Below are positions 4,501 to 35,482 of a stretch of DNA of 37,141 bases, piece by piece. The DNA comes from a virus: the IMG/VR virus record IMGVR_UViG_3300014561_000002. The stretch is one strand, 5' to 3'. Below the pieces are notes generated by a model that had not been told where the DNA came from, did no database searches, and saw nothing but the letters and a program-made list of their open reading frames with translations. Each line of letters begins with the position of its first letter. Within the stretch, counting starts at the first letter, position 1. A program made the position numbers and the translations under genes.

Positions 4501-7500
4501 GTTTTCACCTCGTAGGCAGCAGCGTCCGCAATGGCGCTCACTTCCTCAGCCTTTGCAAGGCTCAACGTCTTGTTTTCGGTGCGGATCACATGCAGCGTGC
4601 TGCTGGTAATGGCTTTCAGCAGCCGCAGCTGGTCCACCGTCATGGGCAGATAGGTGCGGTTCTCCGTGTCCCGGATGCGCGCTTTCAGCCGGTCCTGCAG
4701 GGCCCGGGCCTTCTCACTGTCCGGCAGGGCTTCCGCCTGGGCCAGCTGCTCGTGCAGCTTGTCCAGCCGGGCATTCTTCGCAGCTGTCAGGTCCTCCCGC
4801 AGCGTCTGGATCAGTTCCGGCACCTTGCTCTGCTTCCAGTCCTCGGTCATGGCGTTGGGGGCTCCCTCGCTGCCCATGCTGGCCGTAATGCTGTCCTGCA
4901 GCCTCGTCAGCTGGTTCACAGCCTTGCTGTTCAGGGTCACCAGGTTCGCCAGCTTGGCCACCTCGGCCGCCTCCACGATCAGCCCCTTCTGCACATACTT
5001 GCCCTGCTGGGGCCGCAGCACCATCTGGTTCAGCTGGGCCGCGTTCGCCCGGATGCTCCGTTTCAGCTCGTCCGCCTTCCGGGCGTCCCGGGCCCGCTGC
5101 ACCCGGTTCTCGGCTACTTTCTTCGCAATGGCAATGTCCTCGTCCCGCTGCTGGCGGGCCACTTCCAGCGCAATGGCGTTCCGCTCCGTCTGCTTCTGGT
5201 ACCACTCCGCAGCTTTCTGCTGGTTCATCAGTTCCCAGTCCTGGATCTCCCTGTCCTGGATCATCAGCGAGCGCTCCGCCCGGTCGGCCCGGCGCTGCTC
5301 CTGCTTCACCTGATCGGCCAGATAGTCGTTTTCTTCCCGCAGCTCGCCCATGCGTTCCTTGTACCACAGCTTTGCTGCGTCCATGTCCTCCTGCCGCTGG
5401 GCTTTCAGCCGCTGCTCCTGCTGCTTCAGCTTCCGGCGGAACTCCTCCCGCTGGTAGGTGATGTACTCGTTCACGTCGCCCAGGTTGGTAAAGGTCTTTC
5501 CGTCGATCTTCACAGCGCTCCGGGTCTCGGTGCGCTGGTTGGCGGCCAGTCGGCGGGCAAACTCCTGCCGCTGCACTTTCTGGACACCCTGCATGCCCTT
5601 CTCCACCTCGGCGGCCCTTGCCTCGTCTCCGGCCGCCGCCTTGGCCATCTGTAGCGCCTGCTTCTGCATGCCCTCAAAAATAGCCTGGGCGTCGGTCATC
5701 TCGGGCACGTTCATAATGTCCTCGATCATCCGCCCGGCCAGCTCCACCCGGGCGTCCTCGTACTCGGCCTCGTCCGCAAAGCGGCTGCGCATCTCCGGCT
5801 TGATGCTGTCATGCAGATTCATCAGCACGTCCAGCCACTCGGTGCTCTCCATGCTCATGACACCCTCCACACCGGCCTGCTGGGCCGCCGCTTTCCACAG
5901 CGCCCGCGCACCGTCCTGGATGCCGCCCACGGCCCGGGTGTCGTTCACAATGCTCTCGTACTGCTCCGCCGGGTTTCCGTCCCGCACGCCGTCGGCCTGC
6001 CGCAGGGCCACACCGTGGCTGCGGGCCTCGGCCACCGCCGCGCTCCAGTTGCCGTACCGCTTCACCAGCTCCGCCTTGGCCTTGCCGGTCTTGTTCACGG
6101 TGTACTCCAGCCGGTGCAGCTCCGGGTATTCGTCCCACAGCTCACTGTTGCGGTAGGTCGCCCCGTCCAGCACCTCGCCCGCCAGCGTCTCGGCCAGCGC
6201 CTGGGCCTTTGTCATGTCCGCGCCGTCCGCTTTCAGGTAGTCCACCAGCACCCGGGTCTCGTTGGCCAGCTTTGCCCGGTCGGCCCGGCTGGCGTTGGCT
6301 TTCGTCCACCGCGCCGCCAGCCCGTCCAGGCTGTCCTGGCTCACCTTCACGCCTCTCGTCACCCCAAAGAACTGGCTCAGGGTGTCCAGTGCCGCCGCCG
6401 TGTTCGCAATATCCCGGCTCGCCTGCCGCTGGTCGTTCTTCTTTGCCTCCCGGCTGGCCTGCTCCGCCAGCTGGAAACGGAACTTTGCAAGGCTGCTTTC
6501 CTGCGCCAGCTCTCCGGTCTTGTAATACTCCCGGATCTCCCGCACCACCTTGTCCGCATCCACACGCCCGCTGTATTCCTTGCTGGCGGCAACCCTGCCG
6601 TCTGCTGTGGAGATGTCCAGCGTGAACTGCCTGCGCTCGCCGCCCAGCTGCTCGGCCATTTTCCGGATCTGTTCCAGCTGCTGCGCCGTGGGGGCCGTGT
6701 CCGCCGAAATGTCCACGCCCGGCGCTTCCGCCATCACACGCACATTGCCGTCCAGCAAAAACTCATTCAGCGCTTCCGTGCCGTTCTTCACTTCCGCCGG
6801 GCCGAACACCTCCAGAATTTCCCGGTGGTCGGTGTCCCGGCTGCGGTCATTCTGGGCAAAGTCCAGCATCTGGCCGTCCGGCAGAATGTACCCTGCCCGC
6901 CGGAACTCTTCCGTCACGCCGAACTGTTCCTTTGCCAGCACCCGCCGGTACTCTGCGTTACCGCCGTACTCTTTGGCCTTGGCATCGTAGGCACGCTGTG
7001 CGTCCTTGGCCTGGGCGTCCTTCCGCTGCTGCAGACGCTCATTGGCTGCTTTCATCTGCTCCGTCAGGGCACTGTCCCGCTCTTCCAGCGCGGCCAGTCG
7101 GCTGTTGTACTCCTTGCGCTTTGCAAGGTAGTCCTGGTATTCTGCGCTGTCCCGGTAGGCCTTGCCCTCTGCAGAAAAAACGCCCAGCGCCTTTTTCTTT
7201 GCCTCGATCCGCTGCACTTCGGCACTGTTCAGCCATGCGCTGCGTTCTTCCTTCAGGGCACTGCGCTGCTTGGTCAGTTGCTGCTGTTCGGTGCGCAGCT
7301 TTGCCAGCTCATCCTGCTCCGCCAGCTGATAGCGCACATTTTTCTGCACAGCTGCATTGTTTTCCTTGCTTTCGACAGCGGTTTGTGCTATAGTAGTGTC
7401 AGAAGATACTTCCTGAGCATCCGCAAGGGTGCTCCGCACAGCTTTCGGGAGCTGTGTGGGAGTATCTTCTTTTTTTGTCATATTTCCCTCAGTGTCAAAC

Positions 7501-10500
7501 GTCACATAGCTTCCATCTGCCCAGCATACCTCATGAACATAGAAATTCTTCATGCCATTCTGCCGGGTGTATTCTCTTACAATCACGCCTTCATACAGCT
7601 TTGTTCCGTCAATTTCGACGGGCGCTGCAAAGACATAAGTATCATACCCTCGTCCCTGCCAGTTTTGCTCATACCCGATTTGCTTTCCTTTTTGAATTAC
7701 TTCAGGGACTGCAGCAACCGCAACCTGTTTTGCTTTGCTGTTCCCATGCTGCACCGTTGCACGTGCACCGCTCTTTGTCAACTCCACCGTTCCGAAGTTT
7801 TCACGAATCACTTTGTTTCCTATAGAATCAAAGAATTCTTCAACATTGGAAATGTTTTCGTTTCGCGTTTTTCCGAAAGACACCTCTGTTCCTTCGATTG
7901 TCGCCACCGGTTTCATTTCTTCCAATTCGTCCAGATGGCCGTTCATCTGCTCCACCAGAGAATCTTTTCCCTCGTGCAGCTGGAACCGCACCCCCTGCGC
8001 CGCACCCTCACTCTTGAGGGCTGCGGCGTTTTCTTTTGCCGCCCGCAGGTTGTCCATGGCCTTTTCCGCATGGGCAAAATAGGCGTCCTGCAGGGCCCGT
8101 TTTTCCGCCTCGGCCAAACGCTGGGCTTTCAGGGCCGCCCGGTTCTCCGGGTCAAGGGTCAGCGCTTCCTTTGCCCGGCTGATGATGCCGTTCAGCATCT
8201 CCTTCACGGCGGTCATCACCTTGTGGATGGTGCCTGCCTTGCCGGCGTTCTTCTCCGCCTGCGCCCGCTGGAATTCGGCCCACCGGGTCACGCTCTCGGC
8301 ACTGTCAAAAATGCCGCGCCAGCTGTCCGCCACCAGTTCCTCAGCAGCCTGCTCATAGGTCAGGCCCTGGGCGGCATAGTCCTTCACCTTGTCCCGGATC
8401 AGCTCGTCCACGTTCTCAAAGCCCTCGCTCTTCGCCAGGTACTCCAGCGCCGTGTTCTGCACCGCCTTGGCACCCTCGGCATCCAGAGCGTTGTACCAGT
8501 GGTAGTCCTCGTGCAGCACCGTGCCAAACACGTCTCCGTTCCGGTCGCCAAAAAAGATGCGGCCCGTCTCGGTGTCCACATAGGCTTTCACCCGCTCGCT
8601 GGGGCTTCCGTCCGGGCCCAGCAGCACGCTCTTCAAAATGGCGTCCGTGCCGGTTCCCGCCGCGTTCAGCCGGATCACCTGGGCTGCCACATCGTCCGCC
8701 GCGCGGTCGCTGCCCTTCCAGATCACCCGGCCCTCGCCTTTCGTGCTCTGGTCGGTCAGGGCACCGCCCAGGGCCCCGCGCCCCACCGTGCCGGCTTCCA
8801 CTTCGCCCTGCCCCTGCAAAAAGGCCGCCCGCAGTGCCTGCTCTCCGCCGGGCTGCTGCAGTACATAGTTCGTGTTCGGGGCAAGGTTGTTCATGCCGCC
8901 CGCCAGCTCCAGCGCCTTGTCAAAGGTTTTCACCCCGTCCATCTGGCCCATGCGGTACATGCTGCTTGCTGCCGCCGTGTAGCGTTCCAGGTCTGCAATG
9001 CTGTCCGGCACCATCCGGCTGATGGTCTCCGCCGCGCCCTTGCTCACCTTCCAGTCCGTCAGCTCCCGCTGCACGGCCTGCTGCTTCTCAGTCAGGGTCT
9101 GCTGGCGCAGCCCCACCGTCCGCCGCAGGCCGTCCGGTGCTTCCCGGCTCTGCTGTGTCGTCTCCTGTGCTTCCTGCTGCGCAGCGGCCCGGCTTTCCGC
9201 CTGCGCCTGCTGGTGCAGCTGTTCCGGGTTAAACAGCATCGTTCTGGGGTTTTCCGGGTCTACCGTCCGCACCGCTTCCGTGCCGTCCGCAAAGCGCACC
9301 GTCATGGTGTCGTTGCTCATGCTCACGCTGTAGCCCTGCCCGCTTTCCACGGTTTCCCCAGCCTTTTCCACGGTACTTTGGCCCGGATCGGCGGCAGGGT
9401 TCTCCATCTGCGTCGCATTGTTCCCGACATTTGTGTCGGGAACTTCCGCCGCCTGCTGCACGGCCTGCCCGGCAGTCTGCTGCTGGGCAAGCGTGCGCAG
9501 GGCTTTCCGGGTCTCGCTGGCCGTGGCGGGCAGCTCCATGCCGTACTCCTCCGCAAAGGCCGCCCGGTTTGCTTCGTTGGCCGCGTTCGGGGTGAACAGG
9601 TTGATGGTCTTGCCCGTCAGGGCATCCGCCTCCATGGCGGCCGCCAGCTGCTGCACCGCCGGGTTCTCGCTGCGCACCGCTGGGGCTGCATCCTTCTGGG
9701 CAGTTGTTTCCGCAGCGTCGGCATTGTCCGTCTGCTGCACGGCGGCGGCCTGGTCTGCCTGCTGCCGTGCAGCTTCTCCCGGCTCCATGGCCCGCTCTTC
9801 CAGTGCCCGCTGCGCCGCCGCGGCATCCGCCGCCCGGCTCTCGGTGTCCGCCTGCACCGGGGCAGCCGTTTCCATCCCGGCCCGGGCATCCAGCGTCCGG
9901 CTCATGGCGCCCAGCCCCGTGCCCACGGCACCGCCCAGCGCACCGGAGGCACCACCCGTCAGGCCGCTCTGCAGCGCCTGCAAAAAGGTGTCGCTCTGCA
10001 GCAGCTCGTCGGCGGCCTGCTGGTCGCCGCCCAGCGTGGCATCAATGATCTTGTCCGCATAGGTTTCCACAAAGGCCTGCACCGCATTGTCCACTCCGCC
10101 GGAGATCGTGTTGGCGGCCAGCTGGCTGTTGCCCAGCCCGCTCACCAGCTTCGAGCTGCGCACAAGATCGGCCAGCTTTCCGGCCACCGTGTCCCGGGCA
10201 TAGTCCACGCCCATGCTGCGGGCCATGTCCGCCACGCCCACGCTGTTGATGGCCCAGCCTGCGCCAAACTTTGCAAGGCCCACGCCCACAGCCTGGCCGG
10301 CGCTGGTGCCCTTCTCCGCGTCCTGGCCCATGCTCTCGGCCGCGCCCTGGGCGCTCAGCACCGGCAGCACCAGGTAGGGGCTCACGCCCGCAACAGCCAG
10401 GTTCTCCGCCGCGCTGGTGGCAACGCCCATGGCTGTTTTGGCCGCCGGGCTCATGCCCGCCCGGGCTGCTTCCGTGCGCTGCTGGCCGTAGTGGTACAGC

Positions 10501-11675
10501 TGGTAGCCAAGGCTCGTGTCTTTATCCAGCGCCGTTTTCTGCACCGTCCCGGCAATGCGGCTGCGCATTTCGTCGATCTCGCTCTGGCTGTAGCCCATGC
10601 CGCGCAGATCCTCGTCGGTGTACTGGGGGTTATAGTCCATGTCCACCGCCGTGATCCGGTCTTTCAGTTCCTTGCCACGGGCATCGCCTTCCAGTTCCTT
10701 GTCCAGTGCCGCCTCGTTTTTCTGGGTAGCCCGGATGTCCTTCACGCCCTGGGTGGTCATCTCGCCCGCCATGGGCACCGCCGACGCCACCGTGGCCGTA
10801 ATGCCCTTTGTGGTGTCCGCCGTGCGGCGTGCCGCCCGCTCTGCCAGCGGCAGGGCATCATATTCCCGGATGTATGCCCGGGCCTCGTTGATCTCCTGGG
10901 CCGTGTACCCCATCTTCAAAAGGTCTCCGGGGCTGTACCGCTGCTTTGTACCGGTCACCTGCACGGCCTGCTCCGGGGCAACGCCCTTGTCCTCCTGAGT
11001 GGTGTACTCCTTCTGCCGCAGCAGGTCCACCACCTCCCGGTGCCGGGGGTCGGCATCCATCCACTGGTTCAGCTCGTCAAAGCGGTCTGTTGGCCGGTCC
11101 TTGGCAAGGGCATTCCCCGCCTTCTGCGCCGCCTTGGCGTAGCTGCCGTAGGTGCCCTGCGCAATGGCCCGCTGTTTCGGGGCGTTGTCGCTGCCAACAT
11201 AGTTCCAGTCCGGTTCGTAGTCCTCCTGCCGGTCCGTGGCCACCGGGCTGCCCGTGTTGCTGGCCATATCCGCCAGCACCTGCTTGCCCAGCGTGTCCGC
11301 GCTTACTGTTCCCAGCACCTGCCGGGTGCCGCCGGTCCAGGCCGGGGTGCTGGCCGTCGTCTGCAGGCGGCTGGTGCTGGCGGGGGCAGCCGTCATCTGG
11401 CTGCGGATCTGCGCCACCTGGGCCACGCTCAGGCCCGTGCCGGCGCTCTTGGCTGCCGGTGCCGCCGGGGTGGTCTTGGCCGTCTGGGTCGTCATCGTTT
11501 TCTTCTGGGCTGTCGTTCCGACGATGTTCGCCCGCTGGCTGTTCTTTGCCAGCGGGGCCGTCATGGTCTTCTTGGCCGTCTGAGTCGTCGTCTTCTTCTG
11601 GGCTGCGGTTTTTGCGGCGTCATTCGCTTTAATCTGCTCCCGCATCTGGCGCACCTGTTCTACACTCAGGCTCAT
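1593..11675 (-). CDS. Giant polyvalent virion protein (3,360 aa): TM/Gly-rich N-terminal region, zincin HExxH peptidase-like module, swapped effector-like modules, long coiled coil, large conserved C-terminal half
   Basis: Single uninterrupted ORF with AAAGGAGGAGCAAC before the ATG. HEDYH at aa 1055-1059. Hydrophobic Gly/Ala-rich stretches (MGVATSAAENLAVAGVSPYLVLPVLSAQGAAE, GVGLAKFGAGWAINSVGVA). Heptad-rich region (RLKAQRQEDMDAAKLWYKERMGELREENDYLADQVKQEQRRADRAE...). It is the last and largest gene of the virion module. Confidence 0.9.
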   Translation of the reverse strand: MSLSVEQVRQMREQIKANDAAKTAAQKKTTTQTAKKTMTAPLAKNSQRANIVGTTAQKKTMTTQTAKTTPAAPAAKSAGTGLSVAQVAQIRSQMTAAPASTSRLQTTASTPAWTGGTRQVLGTVSADTLGKQVLADMASNTGSPVATDRQEDYEPDWNYVGSDNAPKQRAIAQGTYGSYAKAAQKAGNALAKDRPTDRFDELNQWMDADPRHREVVDLLRQKEYTTQEDKGVAPEQAVQVTGTKQRYSPGDLLKMGYTAQEINEARAYIREYDALPLAERAARRTADTTKGITATVASAVPMAGEMTTQGVKDIRATQKNEAALDKELEGDARGKELKDRITAVDMDYNPQYTDEDLRGMGYSQSEIDEMRSRIAGTVQKTALDKDTSLGYQLYHYGQQRTEAARAGMSPAAKTAMGVATSAAENLAVAGVSPYLVLPVLSAQGAAESMGQDAEKGTSAGQAVGVGLAKFGAGWAINSVGVADMARSMGVDYARDTVAGKLADLVRSSKLVSGLGNSQLAANTISGGVDNAVQAFVETYADKIIDATLGGDQQAADELLQSDTFLQALQSGLTGGASGALGGAVGTGLGAMSRTLDARAGMETAAPVQADTESRAADAAAAQRALEERAMEPGEAARQQADQAAAVQQTDNADAAETTAQKDAAPAVRSENPAVQQLAAAMEADALTGKTINLFTPNAANEANRAAFAEEYGMELPATASETRKALRTLAQQQTAGQAVQQAAEVPDTNVGNNATQMENPAADPGQSTVEKAGETVESGQGYSVSMSNDTMTVRFADGTEAVRTVDPENPRTMLFNPEQLHQQAQAESRAAAQQEAQETTQQSREAPDGLRRTVGLRQQTLTEKQQAVQRELTDWKVSKGAAETISRMVPDSIADLERYTAAASSMYRMGQMDGVKTFDKALELAGGMNNLAPNTNYVLQQPGGEQALRAAFLQGQGEVEAGTVGRGALGGALTDQSTKGEGRVIWKGSDRAADDVAAQVIRLNAAGTGTDAILKSVLLGPDGSPSERVKAYVDTETGRIFFGDRNGDVFGTVLHEDYHWYNALDAEGAKAVQNTALEYLAKSEGFENVDELIRDKVKDYAAQGLTYEQAAEELVADSWRGIFDSAESVTRWAEFQRAQAEKNAGKAGTIHKVMTAVKEMLNGIISRAKEALTLDPENRAALKAQRLAEAEKRALQDAYFAHAEKAMDNLRAAKENAAALKSEGAAQGVRFQLHEGKDSLVEQMNGHLDELEEMKPVATIEGTEVSFGKTRNENISNVEEFFDSIGNKVIRENFGTVELTKSGARATVQHGNSKAKQVAVAAVPEVIQKGKQIGYEQNWQGRGYDTYVFAAPVEIDGTKLYEGVIVREYTRQNGMKNFYVHEVCWADGSYVTFDTEGNMTKKEDTPTQLPKAVRSTLADAQEVSSDTTIAQTAVESKENNAAVQKNVRYQLAEQDELAKLRTEQQQLTKQRSALKEERSAWLNSAEVQRIEAKKKALGVFSAEGKAYRDSAEYQDYLAKRKEYNSRLAALEERDSALTEQMKAANERLQQRKDAQAKDAQRAYDAKAKEYGGNAEYRRVLAKEQFGVTEEFRRAGYILPDGQMLDFAQNDRSRDTDHREILEVFGPAEVKNGTEALNEFLLDGNVRVMAEAPGVDISADTAPTAQQLEQIRKMAEQLGGERRQFTLDISTADGRVAASKEYSGRVDADKVVREIREYYKTGELAQESSLAKFRFQLAEQASREAKKNDQRQASRDIANTAAALDTLSQFFGVTRGVKVSQDSLDGLAARWTKANASRADRAKLANETRVLVDYLKADGADMTKAQALAETLAGEVLDGATYRNSELWDEYPELHRLEYTVNKTGKAKAELVKRYGNWSAAVAEARSHGVALRQADGVRDGNPAEQYESIVNDTRAVGGIQDGARALWKAAAQQAGVEGVMSMESTEWLDVLMNLHDSIKPEMRSRFADEAEYEDARVELAGRMIEDIMNVPEMTDAQAIFEGMQKQALQMAKAAAGDEARAAEVEKGMQGVQKVQRQEFARRLAANQRTETRSAVKIDGKTFTNLGDVNEYITYQREEFRRKLKQQEQRLKAQRQEDMDAAKLWYKERMGELREENDYLADQVKQEQRRADRAERSLMIQDREIQDWELMNQQKAAEWYQKQTERNAIALEVARQQRDEDIAIAKKVAENRVQRARDARKADELKRSIRANAAQLNQMVLRPQQGKYVQKGLIVEAAEVAKLANLVTLNSKAVNQLTRLQDSITASMGSEGAPNAMTEDWKQSKVPELIQTLREDLTAAKNARLDKLHEQLAQAEALPDSEKARALQDRLKARIRDTENRTYLPMTVDQLRLLKAITSSTLHVIRTENKTLSLAKAEEVSAIADAAAYEVKTSKGNRPGGRFDGLRNTLTKYQLDMLGGERVFRMLGGYAKNGQMEKLARMLNDGQRRQSEIIIKGEKLFADVTGKTHLKEMDAFAGPGAETVDIGLTDTKGNSVPLNHAMLCSLYMHLQNADSRQHLLNGGLTVPNMEQYTKGNIERAYQEGQTVHLGGLQNADGTPMVDTVLQTVENALTDYDRAWIADMQELFNQYTTNLINETSMQLLGYNRAGVKNYYPIAVDKSALATQIEGLNLDATIEGRGFLKNRVKKAVQPILLEECSNVVQRSIRDTAAYAGLALPIRDVQKVLNSNVETKDGVYNLKNGIIKEQWGRSAVEYINDLLTDLQTTQRKRDNGVSRMAARLRGNYAGAILTLNPGVAIAQAASLPTAAAVLGSDTMASVVPFVKNFPPKQRAALETEISEHGDVLLEWRKRGSQRGELASIGKGLTPAEKAMDKLPKVLTGWINGADEVTVAALWEGSKAYVKNHPGEFAEGAAKEGSEDYWQAVNRMYQKVIEQTQPNYTVMQRAGIQRNPDEFVKTFTMFTTQRFQNYGILADAVMDYNAQKARFEEGETEETKAELQRAGKQLQRAAGSQVAQTAVFALMKIGADFLLHRWDREQDENGDVTLKSLLSRFTGLFTESAAGNFLFGSEVYSLVDNALNGKDYDVVSATNISAVNDLAGDVTKFVSELRKDTADMDETKLATHHGKVEKYALTLMEDGLEIAGVPFGNGRKILEAFKGYVQDAVNMFHGGKFTFSSLPASATGQYDRLYDAYASGDAGEAQAAMEKLQEMGKEEEAYKQLKTRLAKYDDRVQQAAQAQVNGNDSQRQQLTRQVIRDLYEALGIREGAKADADKREAVIDCVTGAVNKRANEVLKGDNDSVTDDLVAAVDSGRAQDVQEELDRLLRAGKSVTNLKSKITEVCKPEYLAGSDYDRQKLEEMLLALTDGDGNALYEQKTFATWLKNAEKAQTTTVNDPYADLR
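7335..7970 (-). other. AT-rich domain cassette inside giant ORF (aa 1236-1447), possible PBECR/MuF-C-like nuclease-fold module
   Basis: Visibly lower GC than the flanking ORF sequence. It is bounded exactly by the junction motifs RFQLHE (7971..7988) and RYQLAE (7317..7334). Peptide: ...GTVELTKSGARATVQHGNSKAKQVAVAAVPEVIQKGKQIGYEQNWQGRGYDTYVFAAPVEIDG.... The fold assignment comes from memory of polyvalent-protein domains only. Confidence 0.4.
8499..8513 (-). other. HEDYH (HExxH zincin) motif inside giant ORF
   Basis: Codons CAC GAG GAC TAC CAC read directly from the sequence, in the context FGTVLHEDYHWYNALDAEG. It resembles the metallopeptidase modules described in phage and conjugative-element polyvalent proteins. 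The family assignment is inferred. Confidence 0.55.
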
Positions 11676-28496: not shown

Positions 28497-28760
28497 TCAG
28501 TCCGGGTTAAAGGTCTGGAAGCGTTCGCCTTCGCCGAGTGCTTCCAGCGGGATCTTCCACTCGGTGCAGATGCTTTCGGCCACCGACTTTGCAAAGCCGA
28601 TCAGCTCATCGCCCCGCGCTGCCATCAGCACCCGGCGCTGTGCGCCGGGGCGCAGGTTTGCCCGGCGCATAGCGATCAGACAATAGCCCATGCAGGCTGC
28701 ATTGCTCCACGGCCCGTTCAGGTTTGCCAGCATCCGGGCCGCCTCGTTCTTCTTGCCCAT
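28497..28760 (-). CDS. Small early protein (87 aa)
   Basis: Start moved to the ATG at 28760, with AAGGAGG 7 nt upstream. Confidence 0.5.
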   Translation of the reverse strand: MGKKNEAARMLANLNGPWSNAACMGYCLIAMRRANLRPGAQRRVLMAARGDELIGFAKSVAESICTEWKIPLEALGEGERFQTFNPD

Positions 28761-29390: not shown

Positions 29391-29593
29391 GCGCTTTTCC
29401 CCGGCTGGTGAAACAGATACTCCATCCGCATCCCCGGAAAAAGTCTGTTACGCACTTCTTCCGCTTCTGGATAAGTAAAATCCGTTTCACCGTTGATCTT
29501 GTTCCTTGCGGTTTTTTCGGAACAGCCGATCGTTCGCATGATGTCCCTGACGGTCAATCCATTCCGTTGCATTTCAGCCTTTAAGTTATCCAT
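29387..29593 (-). CDS. Cro-like HTH regulator, first gene of early (lytic) operon (68 aa)
   Basis: HTH segment LTVRDIMRTIGCSEKTARNKINGE. It is divergent from the repressor gene, with AAAGGAG upstream of the start. Confidence 0.7.
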   Translation of the reverse strand: MDNLKAEMQRNGLTVRDIMRTIGCSEKTARNKINGETDFTYPEAEEVRNRLFPGMRMEYLFHQPGKSA

Positions 29594-29616
29594 TGCCTTT
29601 TCTCCTTTCTATTTTG

Positions 29617-29645
29617 ATTTTATATCCTTATTCGGTAAAAGTCAA
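29617..29645 (-). promoter_or_regulatory. Early (lytic) promoter: TTGACT-17-TAAAAT
   Basis: Read on the minus strand, the -35 is at 29645..29640 and the -10 at 29622..29617, about 20 nt upstream of the cro-like RBS. Confidence 0.65.
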
Positions 29646-29685
29646 CCCCATTTTGCAATTTTTTTTTCAATTCGGTAATTTATTA

Positions 29686-29714
29686 TTGACTTGTGCTTTT
29701 TTCTCTTTTATAAT
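29686..29714 (+). promoter_or_regulatory. Repressor (lysogenic) promoter: TTGACT-17-TATAAT
   Basis: The -35 is at 29686..29691 and the -10 at 29709..29714, with exactly 17 nt between them. GGGGAGG lies 8 nt before the GTG start at 29746. Confidence 0.7.
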
Positions 29715-29745
29715 GGGCTTATCAATTAACGGGGAGGTTTTTACC

Positions 29746-30108
29746 GTGTGGCTTGAAAGGCTTGTCCAACTGAAAAAAAACAGCGGCATGACAATTGAGC
29801 AGATTGCAACGGCTTCCGGTGTCCCTAAAGGAACCTTGAATAAGCTCTTTGCTGGACAGACAAAAGACCCTCGGTTGTCCACCGTTTCTGCGGTTGTCCA
29901 CTGCATGGGGTATACCCTTGACGATCTATCCGGCGATACCTCAAACGGTGAAACTGTACTCACCCCTCGGCAGTCTGCTCTGCTGTCCTCGTTTGACCAG
30001 CTCAACGAGGAGGGACAGACCAAGGCCGTGGAGTATGTGGAGGACCTTGTGCTCACCGGCCGTTATAAAAAATGTTCTGCGCCTGACCTGGGTGCAAAAG
30101 AAGCGTAA
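29746..30108 (+). CDS. CI-like XRE-family HTH repressor (120 aa)
   Basis: HTH segment MTIEQIATASGVPKGTLNKLFAGQTKDPRLSTVSAVVHCMGYTLDDL. GTG start chosen by its RBS. No S24 peptidase domain. Confidence 0.75.
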   Translation: MWLERLVQLKKNSGMTIEQIATASGVPKGTLNKLFAGQTKDPRLSTVSAVVHCMGYTLDDLSGDTSNGETVLTPRQSALLSSFDQLNEEGQTKAVEYVEDLVLTGRYKKCSAPDLGAKEA

Positions 30109-30117
30109 ATAAAAAAT

Positions 30118-30150
30118 CCGTTCCAGCATCAGCCGGAACGGTTTATTTGT
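30118..30150 (+). terminator. Terminator after repressor gene
   Basis: CCGTTCC (30118..30124) pairs with GGAACGG (30135..30141), followed by TTTATTTGT. Confidence 0.6.
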
Positions 30151-30163
30151 ATGGGAGAGAATT

Positions 30164-31258
30164 ATGTCAAGCTCTTATCTCGGCCATGGTGCCAAGTATT
30201 GGGCCGACCGCTATTTTGAACAGCACACGCAAACCCGCCTGCCAGATGATCCCGCAGATCTCAGCTGGCGAGAAAAATATCTTGCATTGGAAAAAGAATG
30301 TGAGCATTATCAGGCAACGCTCTCCGAAATGCGCGTAGAAATCGAATACCTGCGCAGCCAACAGCCTACAAGCATTGTGGCCGACCCAGACCTTCAGCGG
30401 AAGGCTGAAAAATGGAAACTCGGTTATACACGTTTGGCAGCTGCGCTCAAAGAAAAAGAGAAACAGTATGATGCACTGTCTGCAGAAAAGCAGCGCCTTG
30501 AGTGCCATCTCCAAGAGCGGGAACTCTATCGTGGAAAAACAGCTGAACAATGGGCCGAATTGTATTTTTCTGAGCAGCGCAATTATCAAAAAGCCACTTC
30601 CGATCTGCAAGAGAGCGATTCTGAAATCCAAACGTTAAACAGCACTATTGCAAATTATCATAAATTCAATGAGGTTGATGGGCACGATGCCACCTACTGG
30701 CATCACAGATACACAACCTCACAGAAAGAGGCTTTTAAGGCCAACGTGTTTTCCGCTCTCGTTATCTTTTTTATTGCCTTTTCCTTCGGCGCCGTTTTTG
30801 GAAATCACGTCGGAGGGAGCGAAAATCTTTCTCCATCTTTTCAAACGGCAAGTTCTTCTATTTCATTATCACCCCAAGTTCAGCCTCAAACGAGTATTGT
30901 TTATAGCAGCTCAAATGAATCAAATACGATCCCGCTTACGGTTACTGCCAGCAAAAACAATAGCTACTACTTTTGTCTCTGCCAGGGTTCTAAAATCGTT
31001 AAAAGTTATTATGTGCGTGCCGGTGAAACGCTTACAACAGTTGTTCCTCCGGGAGGCTACTCTATTTATTTTGCGTATGGGTCCAGCACATCTACTTGGT
31101 TCGGTACACAAAATTTGTGGGGAACTCATACTTCTTTTTATCATTTCACCATCACATTCCCTTTTCGAGAGCCATGTGGACAAGTCTTTAATTTTGCTGT
31201 TTCAAATTCTTTTAGTGTGGAGAGTATAAGTAAAGATGAGTGGTCTGCTCTTAATTAA
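30164..31258 (+). CDS. Coiled-coil / single-pass membrane protein with beta-rich extracytoplasmic C-domain (364 aa); candidate superinfection-exclusion or abortive-infection factor
   Basis: AT-rich ORF. The N-terminal ~190 aa are heptad-rich and contain three W..(R/L)Y motifs. One TM helix, VFSALVIFFIAFSFGAVF (aa ~194-213, nt 30743..30802). A Ser-rich linker precedes a beta-rich C-terminal domain. It is co-oriented with the repressor. Confidence 0.75.
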   Translation: MSSSYLGHGAKYWADRYFEQHTQTRLPDDPADLSWREKYLALEKECEHYQATLSEMRVEIEYLRSQQPTSIVADPDLQRKAEKWKLGYTRLAAALKEKEKQYDALSAEKQRLECHLQERELYRGKTAEQWAELYFSEQRNYQKATSDLQESDSEIQTLNSTIANYHKFNEVDGHDATYWHHRYTTSQKEAFKANVFSALVIFFIAFSFGAVFGNHVGGSENLSPSFQTASSSISLSPQVQPQTSIVYSSSNESNTIPLTVTASKNNSYYFCLCQGSKIVKSYYVRAGETLTTVVPPGGYSIYFAYGSSTSTWFGTQNLWGTHTSFYHFTITFPFREPCGQVFNFAVSNSFSVESISKDEWSALN

Positions 31259-31275
31259 ATTTCATTTACCCCTAT

Positions 31276-31298
31276 AAACTCACAAACCCCTCCAGCAG
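31276..31298 (+). repeat. Cassette-boundary repeat, copy A (truncated)
   Basis: AAACTCACAAACCCCTCCAGCAG is 21/23 identical to the first 23 nt of copy C. Confidence 0.7.
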
Positions 31299-31417
31299 GT
31301 TCCTATTAAGTCTGCTTATTCATGTCTTGTTTGTGAAGGATTTTTGAATTTTCATTGCTTGTCAAGCCCTAATTTTTAGTTTTTCTGTTGCGTTTGCAAC
31401 TTTTCACATTTTTTTCG

Positions 31418-31446
31418 TGTACAAACCTGCTCACCGAGCGTATAAT
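31418..31446 (+). promoter_or_regulatory. Putative promoter of the type III TA locus: TGTACA-17-TATAAT
   Basis: A perfect -10 at 31441..31446 and a 4/6 -35 at 31418..31423. Confidence 0.4.
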
Positions 31447-31547
31447 AGACTTGCAGGAACGTATTCCTGCCAAGACAATGAAAAGACTGCTGGTCTTTGC
31501 TTGTCCGCTGAAAGAGGGTAGCCCCTCCCTGCCATGAAAAAATGGGG

Positions 31548-31632
31548 AATTAAAAAAGCGGTGAGCTCTTACCGTGAGTAGAGAATGAAAAAAGCGGAGA
31601 ACCTCTGCCGTATAGTGAGGAATGAAAAAGGG
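31548..31632 (+). repeat. Imperfect tandem repeats (36 nt, 37 nt, partial third)
   Basis: AATTAAAAAAGCGGTGAGCTCTTACCGTGAGTAGAG / AATGAAAAAAGCGGAGAACCTCTGCCGTATAGTGAGG / AATGAAAAAGGG. The two full units are roughly 70-75% identical by eye. Confidence 0.7.
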
Positions 31633-31663
31633 TGCGGGACAGGTTACTGTTCCGCACCTTCTT
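31631..31663 (+). terminator. Hairpin terminator/attenuator between repeat RNA and toxN
   Basis: GGTGCGGGACAG-GTTA-CTGTTCCGCACC forms a 12-bp stem with one G-U pair, followed by TTCTT. This is the position the attenuating terminator occupies in known type III TA loci. Confidence 0.6.
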
Positions 31664-31681
31664 GGATTAAGGAGCTGAATT

Positions 31682-32209
31682 ATGGGGAAGTTTCAATTTT
31701 ACCACATCAACGAACACTATATCAGCTATTTACATAGTATTGACACCCATGTGCAATACAATAAGGGGCAGCGGCGTCCGTATGTTGGAATTGTACTCTC
31801 CATCAACGGCATTGATTATTATGTTCCCCTTGAATCCCCTAAGCCCAATCACGTTAACATCAAAGGCGGCGGTCCTGTTATGAAACTCGACGATGGTCGT
31901 CTTGGCCTAATGGGCTTCAACAATATGATTCCTGTTATTCCATCTTGCTTGATCAAATTTGATATTCAGAGTATCGAAAATGAGAATTATAAAATGCTCT
32001 TGTTGAATCAGTTAAATTATTGCAACAAGAATCGCGATCTTATTCTCCAGCGTGCAGAATCCACATACCGCAAAGCTCTCAGTCGTAAAATCCCGCTGTA
32101 TCAAAAGGTATGCTGCAATTTTGAAAAATTGGAACGTAAAAGCAAGAAATATGATCCAAATTACGTTCCATCTAAAAAGAAAATTCGTGCAACCGTACCT
32201 TCCAAATAA
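31682..32209 (+). CDS. toxN: ToxN/AbiQ-family type III toxin (endoribonuclease, 175 aa)
   Basis: MGKFQFYHINEHYISYLHSIDTHVQYNKGQRRPYVGIVLSINGIDYYVPLESPKPNH... and C-terminal ...CCNFEKLERKSKKY parallel ToxN/AbiQ (MKFYTISSKYIEYL...AFIGIVLEI.GHKYLAPLTSPK...CNFSLLEEKY), recalled from memory. AAGGAG lies 7 nt before the ATG. Confidence 0.8.
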   Translation: MGKFQFYHINEHYISYLHSIDTHVQYNKGQRRPYVGIVLSINGIDYYVPLESPKPNHVNIKGGGPVMKLDDGRLGLMGFNNMIPVIPSCLIKFDIQSIENENYKMLLLNQLNYCNKNRDLILQRAESTYRKALSRKIPLYQKVCCNFEKLERKSKKYDPNYVPSKKKIRATVPSK

Positions 32210-32219
32210 TTGTTCTTTT

Positions 32220-32253
32220 CAAGGAGCTCCCCGCCGGGTGCTCCTTGTTTTAT
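32220..32253 (+). terminator. Terminator after toxN
   Basis: CAAGGAGC (32220..32227) pairs with GCTCCTTG (32240..32247), followed by TTTTAT. Confidence 0.65.
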
Positions 32254-32292
32254 AAACGCACAACCCCCTCCAACTGTTTCCAGCCGGAGGGG
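32254..32292 (+). repeat. Cassette-boundary repeat, copy B (hairpin CCCCTCC...GGAGGGG)
   Basis: AAACGCACAACCCCCTCCAACTGTTTCCAGCCGGAGGGG is 36/39 identical to copy C. It sits between the convergent toxN and GNAT-like genes, so it could act as a bidirectional terminator. Confidence 0.8.
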
Positions 32293-32342
32293 CAAACAAA
32301 AAGCCCGCCAAGGTATGCCTGGCAGGCCACATGGAACTACAA

Positions 32343-32966
32343 TCAATCACCCAGATATTTCAAAAGCTGCACCAAATACTGGCCGGATTGCCGGTCTCGC
32401 TCATCTCGGTCAAGATCCCGTTTGCCGAAGATCACAAAGCCATTGTCTCCGTAAAAATTGAGCAGCGCGTCTTTGTCCTCGCATTCCAGATACACAAACT
32501 TGCCGCCCAGCACCGCCTGGATCGCGCGCACCTTATCAGTCGCCAGCTTCAACAGCACGTCGCCCGGAATCAGGTTGTCGTATCCGTTGGCAAAATTTTT
32601 GCCAAGCTGACCAATCAGAGGTGCTGAGATCATGTAATTGTCCGTCATAGAGCGTCGCGCATCCCTTGCCATTGCAAAACGATTCACTTTCTTTGCAACA
32701 TTTTTACTAATGTTCTTGCGTGGAATTTCGAGCACTTTGTTTGACAGTGTAAAATATCCCACCAGCACTGGTTTGTCTTTGTAAGATGTCACCACCAGCT
32801 GCGTCTGGGCAATTCCCTGCCTGGCAAATTCAATGGCCTTGCAATGCAGAAAAAACTCCACGTCCTTATTCAGCGGACAAGAAAACTCGGAAAGGATCTC
32901 CTTTGTTCGACCCTCTCCGAGTTCTTGGATCATATCTTTTAGGTTAACTAATCCGTATCCTGTCAT
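32343..32966 (-). CDS. GNAT-fold acetyltransferase-like protein, TacT/AtaT-type toxin candidate (207 aa)
   Basis: The pattern FSCPLNKDVEFFLHCKAIEFARQGIAQTQLVV...VLVGYFTLS...ISAPLIGQLGKNF...GDVLLKLATDKVRAIQAVLGGKFVYLECEDKDALLNFYGDNGF follows the layout of GNAT toxins (F.CG..L..FL...A, LGRLAV..., FY...GF). The acetyl-CoA motif is degenerate. Confidence 0.55.
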   Translation of the reverse strand: MTGYGLVNLKDMIQELGEGRTKEILSEFSCPLNKDVEFFLHCKAIEFARQGIAQTQLVVTSYKDKPVLVGYFTLSNKVLEIPRKNISKNVAKKVNRFAMARDARRSMTDNYMISAPLIGQLGKNFANGYDNLIPGDVLLKLATDKVRAIQAVLGGKFVYLECEDKDALLNFYGDNGFVIFGKRDLDRDERDRQSGQYLVQLLKYLGD

Positions 32967-33136
32967 TTCTTTCCAAACATCTCACGCAGCGCATCGCCCT
33001 TGATCTCATGGACAGTCTTATCCACAACGACATTTTTGCTGCTCTTTCCCTCTGCATTTTCCAATGCTCGTACAAAATTCCGTGCAAGCGGTTTTGAACG
33101 AATCACGACATTCTTTGTAATACTCTTTGTCGCCAT
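32963..33136 (-). CDS. Small protein (57 aa) translationally coupled to the GNAT-like gene; candidate antitoxin
   Basis: Too short for the ORF track. Peptide: MATKSITKNVVIRSKPLARNFVRALENAEGKSSKNVVVDKTVHEIKGDALREMFGKK. GAAGGAGG lies 8 nt before the ATG at 33136. Its stop overlaps the next ATG (ATGA). Confidence 0.55.
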   Translation of the reverse strand: MATKSITKNVVIRSKPLARNFVRALENAEGKSSKNVVVDKTVHEIKGDALREMFGKK

Positions 33137-33186
33137 CAAAAAGACCTCCTTCTTTTTGAAAGTGCAAAGCTATACCTTGCATCTTC

Positions 33187-33215
33187 ATTATATGCAATCC
33201 AGCCCCCTTTGTAAA
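33187..33215 (-). promoter_or_regulatory. Promoter of the 57-aa/GNAT operon: TTTACA-17-TATAAT
   Basis: Read on the minus strand, the -35 is at 33215..33210 and the -10 at 33192..33187, about 50 nt upstream of the start codon. Confidence 0.55.
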
Positions 33216-33240
33216 GCCGCCTGTGCAACTTTCATGTAAA

Positions 33241-33279
33241 AAACGCACAAACCCCTCCAGCCGTTTCCAGCCGGAGGGG
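33241..33279 (+). repeat. Cassette-boundary repeat, copy C
   Basis: AAACGCACAAACCCCTCCAGCCGTTTCCAGCCGGAGGGG, a direct repeat of copy B lying 987 bp away. Confidence 0.8.
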
Positions 33280-33385
33280 TCTGCCCCGTCGTCAAAAGGT
33301 AAGGATAAAAAAGCAAGAAGGTTTCTTTCCATGCGTCGCCTGCCCTTACAGCATAGCACGCTTTTTGGATATGGGCAAGCAAAAG

Positions 33386-33415
33386 CCCCGGCGCTGGTAC
33401 GATGCAGCGCCGGGG
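33386..33415. repeat. Perfect 11-bp inverted repeat (CCCCGGCGCTG-8 nt-CAGCGCCGGGG), flanked by 10-bp direct repeats
   Basis: Read directly from the sequence. ATATGGGCAA occurs at 33369..33378 and 33491..33500. On the minus strand the hairpin is followed by CTTTTGCTTG. It may be a terminator and/or part of attP. Confidence 0.6.
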
Positions 33416-33524
33416 ATAACATGGAGTGCAGCACAAAACCGGACAAAGAAAATTTTATGCTTGCAGGGGTCAGTATATCACACTCCCTGCATATGGGCAA
33501 ACCGCCCGGAAAGGAAGTGTTATC

Positions 33525-35135
33525 ATGCCCCGCAAAAAAGCTCCTGCGGCCGAAGCGCCGCGCCTGGTGGCTTACTACCGCTACTCTGGCGGCAGCCGTC
33601 AGACCGAGCAGAGCATCGAGGGCCAGCGTCGGGACTGCGAGGCCTACGCCCGCGCCCACGGCATGACCATCCTGCGCGAGTATGTAGACCGCCATATCAG
33701 CGGCAAAACCGATGACCGCCCTGCCTTCCAGCAGCTGGTGGCCGACAGTGCGGCGCACACCTTTGACGCCGTGATCTGCTGGAAAACCGACCGCCTGGCC
33801 CGCAACCGCTACGACAGCGCCGTCTATAAGAAAAAGCTCCGGGACAACGGTGTGGAGATCCTCTATGCCGCCGAGAGCAACATCTCCGGTGCCGAGGGCA
33901 TCATCATTGAGGGCCTGATGGAAGCTCTGGCTGAGTATTACAGCGCCGAGCTGGCCGAAAAAGCCCGCCGTGGCATGCGGGAATCTGCCCTCAAGGGCAA
34001 GGCCTTGGGCAGCTCCCGCCCGCTGGGCCTCACCGTGGACGCCGACAAGCACTATGTCATTGAGCCCAAAGGTGCCGAGGCCGTCCGGTATATCTTCGAG
34101 CAGTACGCCGCCGGGCTGTCCTCCTCCTCCATCGTGGAGCGTCTGAACGCCATGGGCCTGCGCACCAGCCACGGCGGCCCGTTCAATAAAAGCAGCATCA
34201 ACCGCATCATCCAGAACGAGATGTACCGCGGCGTTTACGTCAGTAAAAAGTTTGATGTCCGCATCGAGGGCGCGATCCCGGCCATCATCGACAATGATCT
34301 ATGGGAAAGGGCACAAAACATGTTTGAACGCAACCGCCAGAGCCGCACCCCGCACGCCTCCCGCGCCGATTATATCCTCTCCGGCAAACTGTATTGCGGA
34401 GAGTGCGGCTGCCTGATGAAGGGCGTCTGCGGCCGCAGCAGCGGCAACGGCCAGATGTACCACTACTACGCCTGCCCCGGCCGCTCCATCGGCCGCGCCT
34501 GCACCCGCAAAAACATCCCGCAGGACGAGCTGGAGGCTATGGTGGTCAACGCCGTCGCCGATCTGCTGCTGGAGCCCGCGCTGCTGGAGCAGATTGCGGA
34601 TGCCATCGTGGAGCTGCAGCAGGCTGAGGCCGCGCGCCCGGATCCGGAGAAGCAGGCGCTGGAAAAATCCCTGTCCGATGTCCGCAGCAAGATTCAGAAC
34701 ATCCTCACTGCCATTGAGAACGGCACCTCCAGCGCCGCCCTCTCTGCCCGCCTTGCCGACCTGGAGCAGCAGGAGAGCACGCTTTCCTATCAGCTCTCTT
34801 CCCTCACCGCCAAAAAGCCTCTCACCTTCACCCGTGACCAGATTTTGTTCCTGCTGCAGCAGTTCCGTGTCTCCCCCTCGGAGCGCACCAAGGCCTACTG
34901 CCGCCGCCTGGTTGATACCTTTGTGGATCACATCGAGCTCACCAACACCGAGCTGATCCTCTATTTCAACATCTCCGACGAAACCATTGATAAAAACAAA
35001 AAAGCTCCCCGGTCGAACCATTCCGAAGAAAGTTCGACCGAGAAGCGTTTGGTCCGCCTTATGTTTCCCCAGTCGAACCTTTCCGTCACCGTCTTTCCTT
35101 CTTATTTTCTTCTTACCCGTCCCCTCTCCCATTAA
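33525..35135 (+). CDS. int: Large serine recombinase (integrase, 536 aa)
   Basis: Resolvase-type N-terminus (VAYYRYSGGSRQTEQSIEGQRRDC...DAVICWKTDRLARN), a recombinase domain, a Cys cluster (LYCGECGCLMKG...YYACPGR) and a C-terminal coiled coil. Start set at ATG 33525. Confidence 0.9.
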   Translation: MPRKKAPAAEAPRLVAYYRYSGGSRQTEQSIEGQRRDCEAYARAHGMTILREYVDRHISGKTDDRPAFQQLVADSAAHTFDAVICWKTDRLARNRYDSAVYKKKLRDNGVEILYAAESNISGAEGIIIEGLMEALAEYYSAELAEKARRGMRESALKGKALGSSRPLGLTVDADKHYVIEPKGAEAVRYIFEQYAAGLSSSSIVERLNAMGLRTSHGGPFNKSSINRIIQNEMYRGVYVSKKFDVRIEGAIPAIIDNDLWERAQNMFERNRQSRTPHASRADYILSGKLYCGECGCLMKGVCGRSSGNGQMYHYYACPGRSIGRACTRKNIPQDELEAMVVNAVADLLLEPALLEQIADAIVELQQAEAARPDPEKQALEKSLSDVRSKIQNILTAIENGTSSAALSARLADLEQQESTLSYQLSSLTAKKPLTFTRDQILFLLQQFRVSPSERTKAYCRRLVDTFVDHIELTNTELILYFNISDETIDKNKKAPRSNHSEESSTEKRLVRLMFPQSNLSVTVFPSYFLLTRPLSH

Positions 35136-35482
35136 CCCCTTCTCACCAGCGCATTGTACAGCATCTCCAAGAACTGCGCCGCGGACGGTGTGCCGGTCAG
35201 TGGGTAGCCTGCCAGCTGTTGCACATGTTCCGGGCTTGTGTTCCATGTGATCTGTGCGGCCCGACGAATCGTGCTCTGAATGGCTGTCCAGTAGCAGTGA
35301 TATTGTTCTGACAGCGGCTCATATACTTCCTTCTGTACAGCCTCCAGCCTGTCCTCCTGCTCATAGATCCGGGCCAGCGCATCCCGCAGAATGCGATAAG
35401 CTCTCATATTACGGGTGATTCCCAGCGGGCGCAAGACGTCGGCCGCCCGGAGTGCAAAGTCGGTCGTTTCAGTCGTAGTCAT
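35132..35482 (-). CDS. Spo0A C-terminal (DNA-binding) domain-like protein without receiver domain (116 aa)
   Basis: LRPLGITRNMRAYRILRDALARIYEQEDRLEAVQKEVYEPLSEQYHCYWTAIQSTIRRAAQITW...QFLEMLYNAL aligns in pattern with B. subtilis Spo0A-C ([24 protein letters not shown]...[32 protein letters not shown]...EFIAMVADKL). Confidence 0.7.
   Translation of the reverse strand: MTTTETTDFALRAADVLRPLGITRNMRAYRILRDALARIYEQEDRLEAVQKEVYEPLSEQYHCYWTAIQSTIRRAAQITWNTSPEHVQQLAGYPLTGTPSAAQFLEMLYNALVRRG

Follow-up and report, generated by a model that had tools for sequence, protein, structure and literature searches.

Accessory cassettes in the lysogeny module of a temperate human-gut phage share terminator boundaries and are probably reshuffled by recombination at the terminator copies

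How do temperate phages exchange the accessory genes carried beside their lysogeny genes, and what sets the edges of each exchanged unit? The locus that raises this question lies at positions 30109-33524 of IMG/VR record IMGVR_UViG_3300014561_000002, between a repressor gene and an integrase gene. The whole record of 37,141 nt, called the window from here on, represents the excised or circular form of a temperate phage with a genome of ~37 kb, in which the minus strand carries the main operons and the plus strand the repressor, the cargo and the integrase. A sequence-only reading had described an AT-rich island of three units, namely a gene for a 364-amino-acid (aa) membrane protein, a repeat RNA followed by toxN (the ToxIN cassette), and an opposite-strand pair encoding a 57-aa protein and a GNAT-like protein (the GNAT cassette); these open reading frames (ORFs) are present as described. 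It had further proposed that three copies (A, B and C) of a hairpin repeat of ~39 bp separate the units, and that cassettes are gained and lost by recombination at these reused repeats in a lysogeny hotspot. Comparison with related loci largely supports this proposal, as relatives do vary at the repeats and the repeat is linked to cassette boundaries. We think it likely that the region is an accessory (moron or defence) slot in the lysogeny module of a temperate human-gut phage, and that its terminator-bounded cassettes are reshuffled by homologous recombination between terminator copies, where we infer both the homologous nature of the recombination and the direction of events.

The comparison covers ~85 related loci (handles beginning with L). 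Pattern scans gave 16 related IMG/VR contigs and 67 metagenome contigs, all 67 of which are homologous to the window and about a third of which are titled as human-gut assemblies. The GNAT cassette is found between copies B and C in 44 sequences, the window included, and 26 loci lack precisely positions 32293-33240, so that B and C bracket the cassette exactly, as had been claimed. What these loci retain is one hybrid copy of the repeat, with the left flank of B (a terminator, T1) on one side and the right flank of C (the region upstream of the integrase gene) on the other. The 26 solo copies fall into four allele types (10 are B-type, 1 is C-type, and 12 and 3 belong to two others), and several events are therefore implied. 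An assembly artefact from collapsed repeats was considered as a source of solo copies and rejected: the contig titles name assemblers whose final k-mers exceed the 39-nt repeat in length, and solo sites with distinct alleles come from many different samples and assemblers and reappear in a third phage lineage described below.

The ToxIN cassette, bracketed by copies A and B, is missing in L029, L047, L054, L075, L077 and L088. In these loci the repressor-proximal cargo (slot 1) is joined directly to the block formed by T1 and the repeat (T2), the same block at which the GNAT junctions lie. One slot-1 cargo, d, occurs with ToxIN in L007 and without it in L054 and L077, and in L007 the ToxIN cassette stands between 66-bp direct repeats that consist of T1 plus the left arm of T2. 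All four combinations of presence and absence of ToxIN and the GNAT cassette are found, with every junction at the terminator block. Across 53 island-spanning sequences (the window and 52 relatives), sequences with the GNAT cassette and sequences lacking it each occur with 7 slot-1 types, and those lacking ToxIN occur with 4. We see from these data that the cassettes assort independently.

The repeat itself had been described accurately as to position (A 31276-31298, B 32254-32292, C 33241-33279) and identity (36/39 between B and C, 21/23 between A and C), although the likeness of A to C extends further than first stated, through the hairpin loop (Table 1). No matches to the repeat are expected by chance (100 shuffles), and its copies in the window are confined to the island. 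On the minus strand, copy C forms 17 pairs followed by GCGUUUUUUA, with a fold of -37.3 kcal/mol (z -6.6) against -21.2 on the plus strand, and copy B forms 12 pairs followed by a weaker tract, GUUGUGCGUUUAU. Relatives supply 12 alleles of T2, 9 of them seen more than once. The minus-strand stem of all 9 recurrent alleles is fully paired, with 1-2 G·U pairs and zero mismatches, whereas the same alleles carry 1-2 A·C mismatches on the plus strand; this pattern holds at all 4 recurrently variable stem pairs. A T-run, giving a U-tract, lies behind T2 on the minus strand and none on the plus strand, so that the minus strand has the G+C-rich hairpin and following U-tract of an intrinsic terminator. 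Given the strand-specific pairing and the T-run, we read the 39-mer as a Rho-independent terminator, predicted to stop leftward transcription. Searches of Rfam at gathering and permissive thresholds returned no family for the hairpins.

The 39-mer does mark the cassette edges, but the true boundary unit is larger than had been thought: the plus-strand terminator T1 stands beside minus-strand T2, and together they form a back-to-back block of ~75 bp with an A/T-rich spacer in common. T1, the predicted terminator of toxN in the window, also closes other slot-1 cargoes (L007, L011, L020, L029, L054, L077). Copy A does not fold (z -0.84); every relative with ToxIN has it where that cassette begins on the left, regardless of the cargo further left, and it has the look of a truncated recombination scar. 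Nor is the 39-mer a generic host terminator, as the 21-nt left arm of T2 has only 3 matches among 185,579 species-representative genomes, which is about the estimated chance level. These matches, in Falsirhodobacter, Victivallales and Flavobacteriaceae, come from unrelated taxa with zero homology to the window and were set aside, as were two viral contigs (L001 and L016) that match a loose palindrome pattern through unrelated hairpins, with no common flanks and no left arm.

Two sister lineages carry versions of the same arrangement. Lineage 2 (L095-L098), with tyrosine integrases, holds the closest GNAT homologues outside the window's own lineage (90% identity), and its gene order is repressor, variable membrane cargo, ToxIN, GNAT pair and integrase, with copies A', B' and C' present. 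Its identity to the window is 98-99% in ToxI-toxN, 94% in the T1/T2 block, 87% in the module upstream of ToxIN, 91.5% in the putative antitoxin gene of the GNAT pair and 78% in the GNAT toxin gene, and there is no similarity on the integrase side; read along the island, identity is mosaic, cassette by cassette. The stem of C' is kept by double substitutions (fold -31.3 kcal/mol on the minus strand vs -19.3 on the plus strand), and scar A' is identical to C' at 28/28 positions, including substitutions that are compensated solely within C'. This suggests gene conversion between copies of one genome.

In lineage 3 (L091; GNAT identity 83%, a tyrosine recombinase integrase, no ToxN), the corresponding hairpin, H, is unrelated in sequence to T2 and again reads as a terminator, in the GNAT sense direction. 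The GNAT cassette here lies between 41-nt direct repeats of H that are 93% identical. A scan for H gave 7 contigs with a solo H from which the GNAT cassette is precisely absent, among them L108, whose flanks are 98.9% and 97.7% identical and overlap by 41 bp. In L109, two H copies surround an AbiD/Abi_2 gene, and the duplication around H is longer, at ~250 bp. The same repeats can thus enclose a GNAT pair, an AbiD gene or nothing, which bears out the expectation of different cargo between shared boundaries, and the cassette pattern is independent of both recombinase type and hairpin sequence. More distant GNAT pairs (63-66% identity), located ahead of terminase genes elsewhere in phage genomes, lack direct repeats on their flanks, which shows that the flanking duplication does not accompany the gene pair everywhere.

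How might such a locus work? The T1/T2 block would act as an insulator, both between convergent units and between these and the integrase gene. Because the same block ends each cassette, its copies would serve as portable homology: recombination between copies within one genome would delete a cassette or convert one copy to the sequence of another, recombination between related co-resident phages would swap a cassette, and each cassette would thus be gained, lost or exchanged separately. We regard this as the most likely mechanism, backed as it is by exact junctions, hybrid solo copies, independent assortment and the identity of A' and C'. Several points weigh against it. The metagenome and IMG/VR loci are perhaps partly redundant, which makes the counts given above upper bounds on independent observations. 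A repeat of 39 nt is short for RecA-type homologous recombination, and no phage recombinase of the RecT, Erf or Sak type was recognised in the early region, where only a replication initiator was seen. The B-type solo copies need a crossover in the last ~7 nt of the repeat, or else they are ancestral empty sites, and a rooted phylogeny would be needed to tell gain from loss. Any homology on the flanks could serve for slot-1 swaps, in which case copy A may be a passive scar. Finally, the GNAT cassette of lineage 3 is flanked by duplicates of an unrelated hairpin, a state that homologous exchange with a lineage-1 donor leaves unexplained; something must therefore have first duplicated the resident terminator.

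That duplication would follow if intrinsic terminators at a lysogeny hotspot were recombinase-independent docking sites, at which a cassette circle with one terminator, or a hairpin-stalled replication copy, inserts into the resident terminator and so duplicates it. This would account for T2 and H showing the same exact-terminator duplication around the same GNAT cassette; we consider it unlikely, though not negligible.

We have stronger doubts that the repeat is a terminator and nothing else, duplicated for insulation, so that it marks the edges without causing them, with one ancient indel per cassette reassorted since then through long flanking genes (ToxIN and the integrase side). Relatives share 95-99% identity in the flanks, which would make crossovers outside the repeat easy; one would expect functional terminators at moron ends; and a terminator does stand directly upstream of the GNAT cassette promoter in lineages 1 and 3, which fits insulation. 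But the indel edges match the 39-41-nt repeat to the base, with no extension past the terminator, in two lineages with unrelated hairpins. The solo copies also come in at least four allele types, B-type and C-type among them, and A' is identical to C' in lineage 2 despite A' having no structural role.

An improbable third explanation is hairpin-stimulated template switching, in which stalled replication takes a donor cassette as template and then restarts upstream of the hairpin, duplicating the resident terminator, while switches in the loop give scars like copy A. The break in copy A does fall right behind the loop, and exactly one terminator unit has been duplicated independently in two unrelated sequences (T2, 39 nt; H, 41 nt), with the longer duplication around H in L109 pointing the same way. 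There is no direct evidence for this route, however; a mini-circle integrating by homologous recombination gives the same product, and deletion to a solo copy is simpler by recombination between direct repeats.

Hardly credible is a site-specific, integron-like process in which the hairpin is an attC-like site for a dedicated recombinase (the adjacent integrase or a host enzyme): imperfect palindromes do separate cassettes beside an integrase gene, and a single copy does stay after cassette loss, but IntI is missing, the palindrome is a terminator of the canonical type, a hairpin of unrelated sequence takes its role in lineage 3, the cassettes carry promoters of their own and stand in both orientations (those of integrons are promoterless and co-oriented), the same boundaries occur with a large serine integrase in lineage 1 and with tyrosine integrases in lineages 2 and 3 and in L069, the integrase has its attachment point elsewhere, next to a tRNA-Pro gene, and neither the ORF list nor the domain search revealed a transposase or additional recombinase in the island. 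The adjacent integrase is not responsible for cassette exchange, because the boundaries are indifferent to integrase type and the enzyme has a site of its own.

This site can be placed from integrated relatives, whose homology to the window ends at 35056-35060, ~80 nt ahead of the integrase stop codon (L008 885-962, L026 4083-4160, L050 4713-4790). A tRNA-Pro(GGG) gene adjoins this end, with an overlap of ~7 nt. Together these observations put the attP core near 35050-35060, within the 3' end of the integrase gene itself, with tRNA-Pro(GGG) as the target, so that integration swaps out the last ~26 codons. The integrase gene is 68% identical in DNA sequence to those of Faecalibacterium phages Toutatis and Lelie, the sole match of the window to GenBank phages; no phage isolate among GenBank phages carries the island. 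The lysis module ends in a gene (35132-35482, minus strand) that converges on the integrase gene and encodes a protein of 116 aa; its Spo0A C-terminal DNA-binding domain matches PF08769 (E 7.5e-19).

Table 1. Features of the island and its borders, in window coordinates.
Feature	Position	Strand	Evidence or details
Repressor promoter-like site	29686..29714	+	promoter scan
Helix-turn-helix (HTH; Cro/C1-type) repressor, left border of island	29746-30108	+	PF01381 HTH_3, E 4e-08
Hairpin 3' of repressor gene, T-rich on both sides	30118..30141	terminator-like, minus (-30141..30118)	terminator scan
Slot-1 cargo, 364-aa bitopic membrane protein	30164..31258	+	hydropathy
Copy A, T2 left arm and loop only	31276..31303	-	25/28 identical to C
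ToxIN promoter module, portable	31304..31446	+	near-palindrome GTTGCGTTTGCAAC 31388-31401; -35 31418-31423; -10 31441-31446
ToxI/antiQ-like tandem repeats	31546..31629	+	36 nt, 2.3 copies, TRF score 90
toxN/abiQ endoribonuclease toxin, 175 aa	31682..32209	+	PF13958 E 5.2e-47; PADLOC AbiQ E 1.3e-44
T1, toxN intrinsic terminator	32220..32253	+	hairpin + TTGTTTTAT; fold -19.2 kcal/mol, z -5.4
Copy B of 39-mer (T2), back-to-back with T1	32254..32292	-	fold -24.6 (minus) vs -16.5 kcal/mol (plus)
Predicted terminator of the GNAT operon	32302..32328	-	11 pairs + TTTTTGTTT; fold -19.7 kcal/mol
207-aa GNAT-fold protein	32343..32966	-	AF2 model, Foldseek, phrog_1758
Putative antitoxin, 57 aa from ATG or 58 aa from TTG	32963..33139	-	ORF list; 4-nt overlap with toxin start
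GNAT-pair promoter, TTTACA-17-TATAAT	33187..33215	-	promoter scan, 11/12
Copy C of 39-mer (T2), strongest copy	33241..33284	-	17-pair stem + GCGTTTTTTA; terminator scan -33284..33247
Integrase-upstream region, right border of island	33285..33524		two haplotypes in relatives (TCTGCC..., GTTGCC...)
Large serine integrase	33525..35135	+	Resolvase, Recombinase, Zn_ribbon_recom domains

The composition of the island agrees with its description as AT-rich: GC is 44.6% across 30109-33524 against 63.3% in the remaining window, and in 500-nt windows it is 0.39-0.50 across 29501-33500 and 0.59-0.72 in most of the backbone. The repressor-to-integrase stretch is therefore far more AT-rich than the genome, as claimed, but the AT-rich zone begins earlier, near 29300, and includes the cro/repressor region. 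Each unit had also been credited with its own promoter and/or terminator. Such signals were found for ToxIN and for the GNAT pair, where copy C lies immediately upstream of the promoter, but the promoter scan detected no separate promoter for the 364-aa gene.

The borders of the island vary as well. At least 4 alternative repressor alleles are seen among relatives, and the hairpin behind the repressor gene is the left breakpoint for many slot-1 swaps (30120-30153), with homology breaking at 30120, 30144 and 30153. On the right, both haplotypes of the integrase-upstream region are found with and without the GNAT cassette. This region also contains a 30-nt direct repeat, D2 (33349-33378 and 33471-33500, 77% identical), a strong terminator-like hairpin at 33415-33386 (minus strand) and promoter-like sites, likewise on the minus strand; a small antisense RNA or regulatory sites for int may be present here.

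Slot 1 is the most diverse position. The 364-aa protein has one transmembrane helix at ~193-215 (hydropathy peak 2.38), a charged, coiled-coil-like N-terminus and a C-terminal domain of ~145 aa; it has no Pfam or PHROG family, and its matches in NCBIfam and PADLOC are insignificant. Relatives hold at least 11 unrelated slot-1 cargoes, nearly all predicted to be membrane or secreted proteins without a known family, and chimeric slot-1 proteins occur in L047 and L069. Every slot-1 cargo ends at copy A or at T1/T2, with the left arm of T2 beginning the sequence to its right. By position and topology, the 364-aa protein and the other slot-1 membrane proteins are candidates for superinfection exclusion. 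In L069 (1-3900), a different phage with a tyrosine integrase, the slot-1 ORF is a chimera whose N-terminus corresponds to that of the 364-aa protein and whose C-terminus corresponds to that of the cargo-d protein (138 aa); the ToxIN cassette there has T1 and half of T2, and is followed by a RelB/DinJ-like ORF and then a diverged T1/T2. Slot 1 of lineage 3 (L109 6565-7866) encodes a protein of 433 aa that combines a hydrophobic segment at its N-terminus (judged by eye) with a Glu/Lys-rich charged stretch and an Mrr_cat restriction-endonuclease domain (E 1.2e-11), a possible membrane-anchored nuclease defence.

The identity of the second cassette as a type III toxin-antitoxin system of the ToxIN/AbiQ kind is secure at the sequence level. 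Its predicted role is abortive infection, in which the processed repeats would neutralise the toxin. The PF13958 match of ToxN spans positions 2-159 of the 159 in the profile, and a hairpin (31631-31658), then TTCTT, lies between the tandem repeats and toxN. As in known ToxIN and AbiQ-antiQ systems, a ToxN-family endoribonuclease thus stands behind short tandem repeats and a hairpin. Unlike them, the system is carried by a gut prophage, and its repeat RNA fits no ToxI-like family in Rfam at gathering or permissive thresholds. A promoter-like site was found by the promoter scan at +31418..31446, and the core of the promoter module recurs both in the L109 AbiD cassette and in the lineage-2 ToxIN cassette. 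A motif related to GTTGCGTTTGCAAC is also seen at 33219-33232, upstream of the GNAT-pair promoter, and is conserved in the GNAT cassette of lineage 3 (L091) and the AbiD cassette (L109); near-palindromes of this type may be an operator or promoter element common to the cassettes.

For the 207-aa protein of the third cassette, an AF2 model (pLDDT 88.2, pTM 0.83) gives a fold resembling that of tRNA-acetylating GNAT toxins: the top 16 Foldseek matches are all AtaT2, AtaT, KacT, TacT, GmvT or the unnamed 'bacterial toxin' 7byy (E 2e-8 to 5e-7). The protein matches phrog_1758, an acetyltransferase family (E 8.5e-48), and 893 homologues were detected. It has zero matches in Pfam, NCBIfam or PADLOC. 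Residues F171, Y172, N175, G176 and F177 (FY..NGF) are unchanged across 32 homologues and align with FYERFGF of GmvT. Y172 may be the equivalent of the conserved catalytic Tyr of the FYxxxGF motif, by comparison with the AtaT Y144 and KacT Y145 mutants named in PDB titles. An ORF of 56-61 aa lies upstream of the GNAT gene in every homologous locus inspected; the one in the window matches phrog_3291 (function unknown; E 8.7e-19), and its 58-aa product has no DUF1778, ribbon-helix-helix (RHH) or other Pfam match (E <= 0.01) and none in NCBIfam or PADLOC.

A GNAT-fold toxin with a small upstream gene that overlaps it is shared with the TacAT, AtaRT, KacAT and GmvAT systems (PMC9177977), whereas the 207-aa protein is ~40 aa longer than those toxins, with an insertion near residues 100-110. 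Membership in the GNAT/DUF1778 type II toxin-antitoxin systems was considered and rejected, as the 57-aa partner lacks a DUF1778/RHH signature; we describe the pair instead as GNAT-toxin-like, with a different, shorter partner as putative antitoxin. Likeness to known toxins in a profile search against PDB sequences is marginal (GmvT, E 0.003). In one relative (L073 5400-7700), a mobilisable element with a MobA-like relaxase and a CHC2-primase is inserted in the 3' end of the GNAT toxin gene.

Two observations concern the window outside the island. At 28622-28631, two alignment blocks overlap by 10 bp and most relatives hold ~355 bp more, and the window thus appears to carry an early-region deletion between short direct repeats. 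In the structural region, a single ORF of 3360 aa (1593-11675, minus strand) presumably encodes a giant tail or host-interaction protein.

Slots for morons and lysogenic-conversion genes between int and the repressor gene are familiar from the lambdoid moron concept, the sie genes of lactococcal P335 phages and the prophage defence genes of mycobacteriophages. The present island shares with them autonomous promoter/terminator units, deviant composition, variable presence among related phages, prophage expression, an int-repressor position and small membrane proteins beside the repressor. It differs in that its boundaries are a reused, sequence-conserved terminator, that all combinations of presence and absence are found in natural populations, and that any sie function would be by resemblance. 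The GNAT pair and the membrane proteins may have anti-phage roles, and the cassettes together could form one multi-layer exclusion island, as the sequence-only reading had suggested. In prophage defence hotspots, a fixed position in a temperate element holds anti-phage systems that are rapidly swapped, which has been ascribed to recombination (PMC9122126, PMC13586616). Those hotspots belong to another host clade and phage type and have conserved core genes as their limits, whereas here a small terminator repeat delimits each cassette; the words 'terminator' and 'hairpin' are absent from the text of PMC13586616.

The closest counterpart is the promoter-early stem-loop (PeSL) motifs of T4-type phages. 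PeSL cassettes lie in hyperplastic regions, where non-essential genes stand between short conserved motifs of the terminator or terminator/promoter kind; indels or replacements between close relatives end at the motifs, which has been ascribed to homologous recombination from motif to motif (Arbiol et al. 2010, PMC2839356; Comeau et al. 2014, PMC4122927). Both features are seen here: a repeated stem-loop terminator lies at the borders of accessory genes, and indels and replacements end at it. In addition, the copy C terminator abuts a promoter, and a promoter module is common to the ToxIN and AbiD cassettes. The differences are that the PeSL motif is a composite of strong promoter and terminator, whereas the repeated unit here is a convergent pair of terminators with only copy C adjoining the GNAT promoter; that PeSLs are found by the dozen across a lytic myovirus, and the present boundaries at one lysogeny-module hotspot of a temperate Firmicutes siphophage; and that the cargo comprises toxin-antitoxin, Abi and membrane-protein genes. 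Excised mini-circles with one motif copy are a feature on the PeSL side. In our literature searches, neither this island nor any terminator-bounded cassettes of Faecalibacterium-type phages turned up.

In short, phages were already known to shuffle accessory genes in this way, and the locus adds a clear new example; it also carries the PeSL idea over from lytic T4-like phages to temperate ones of Firmicutes. It offers a natural experiment, resolved to the base pair, on how the defence and exclusion repertoires of human-gut prophages are reshuffled. The reused terminator block is a small, recognisable landmark for cassette edges, and could help to find the limits of accessory cargo of unknown kind when gut prophages are mined for it; candidates include the unannotated slot-1 membrane and secreted proteins, at least 11 in number, and the widespread GNAT toxin-like pair, with its 893 homologues, no Pfam family and a novel 57-aa partner. 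The locus also raises the testable question of whether a terminator hairpin takes an active part in cassette insertion or a passive one. If terminators do act as docking sites, temperate Firmicutes phages would possess their own integron-like exchange of defence cassettes, without a dedicated integrase.

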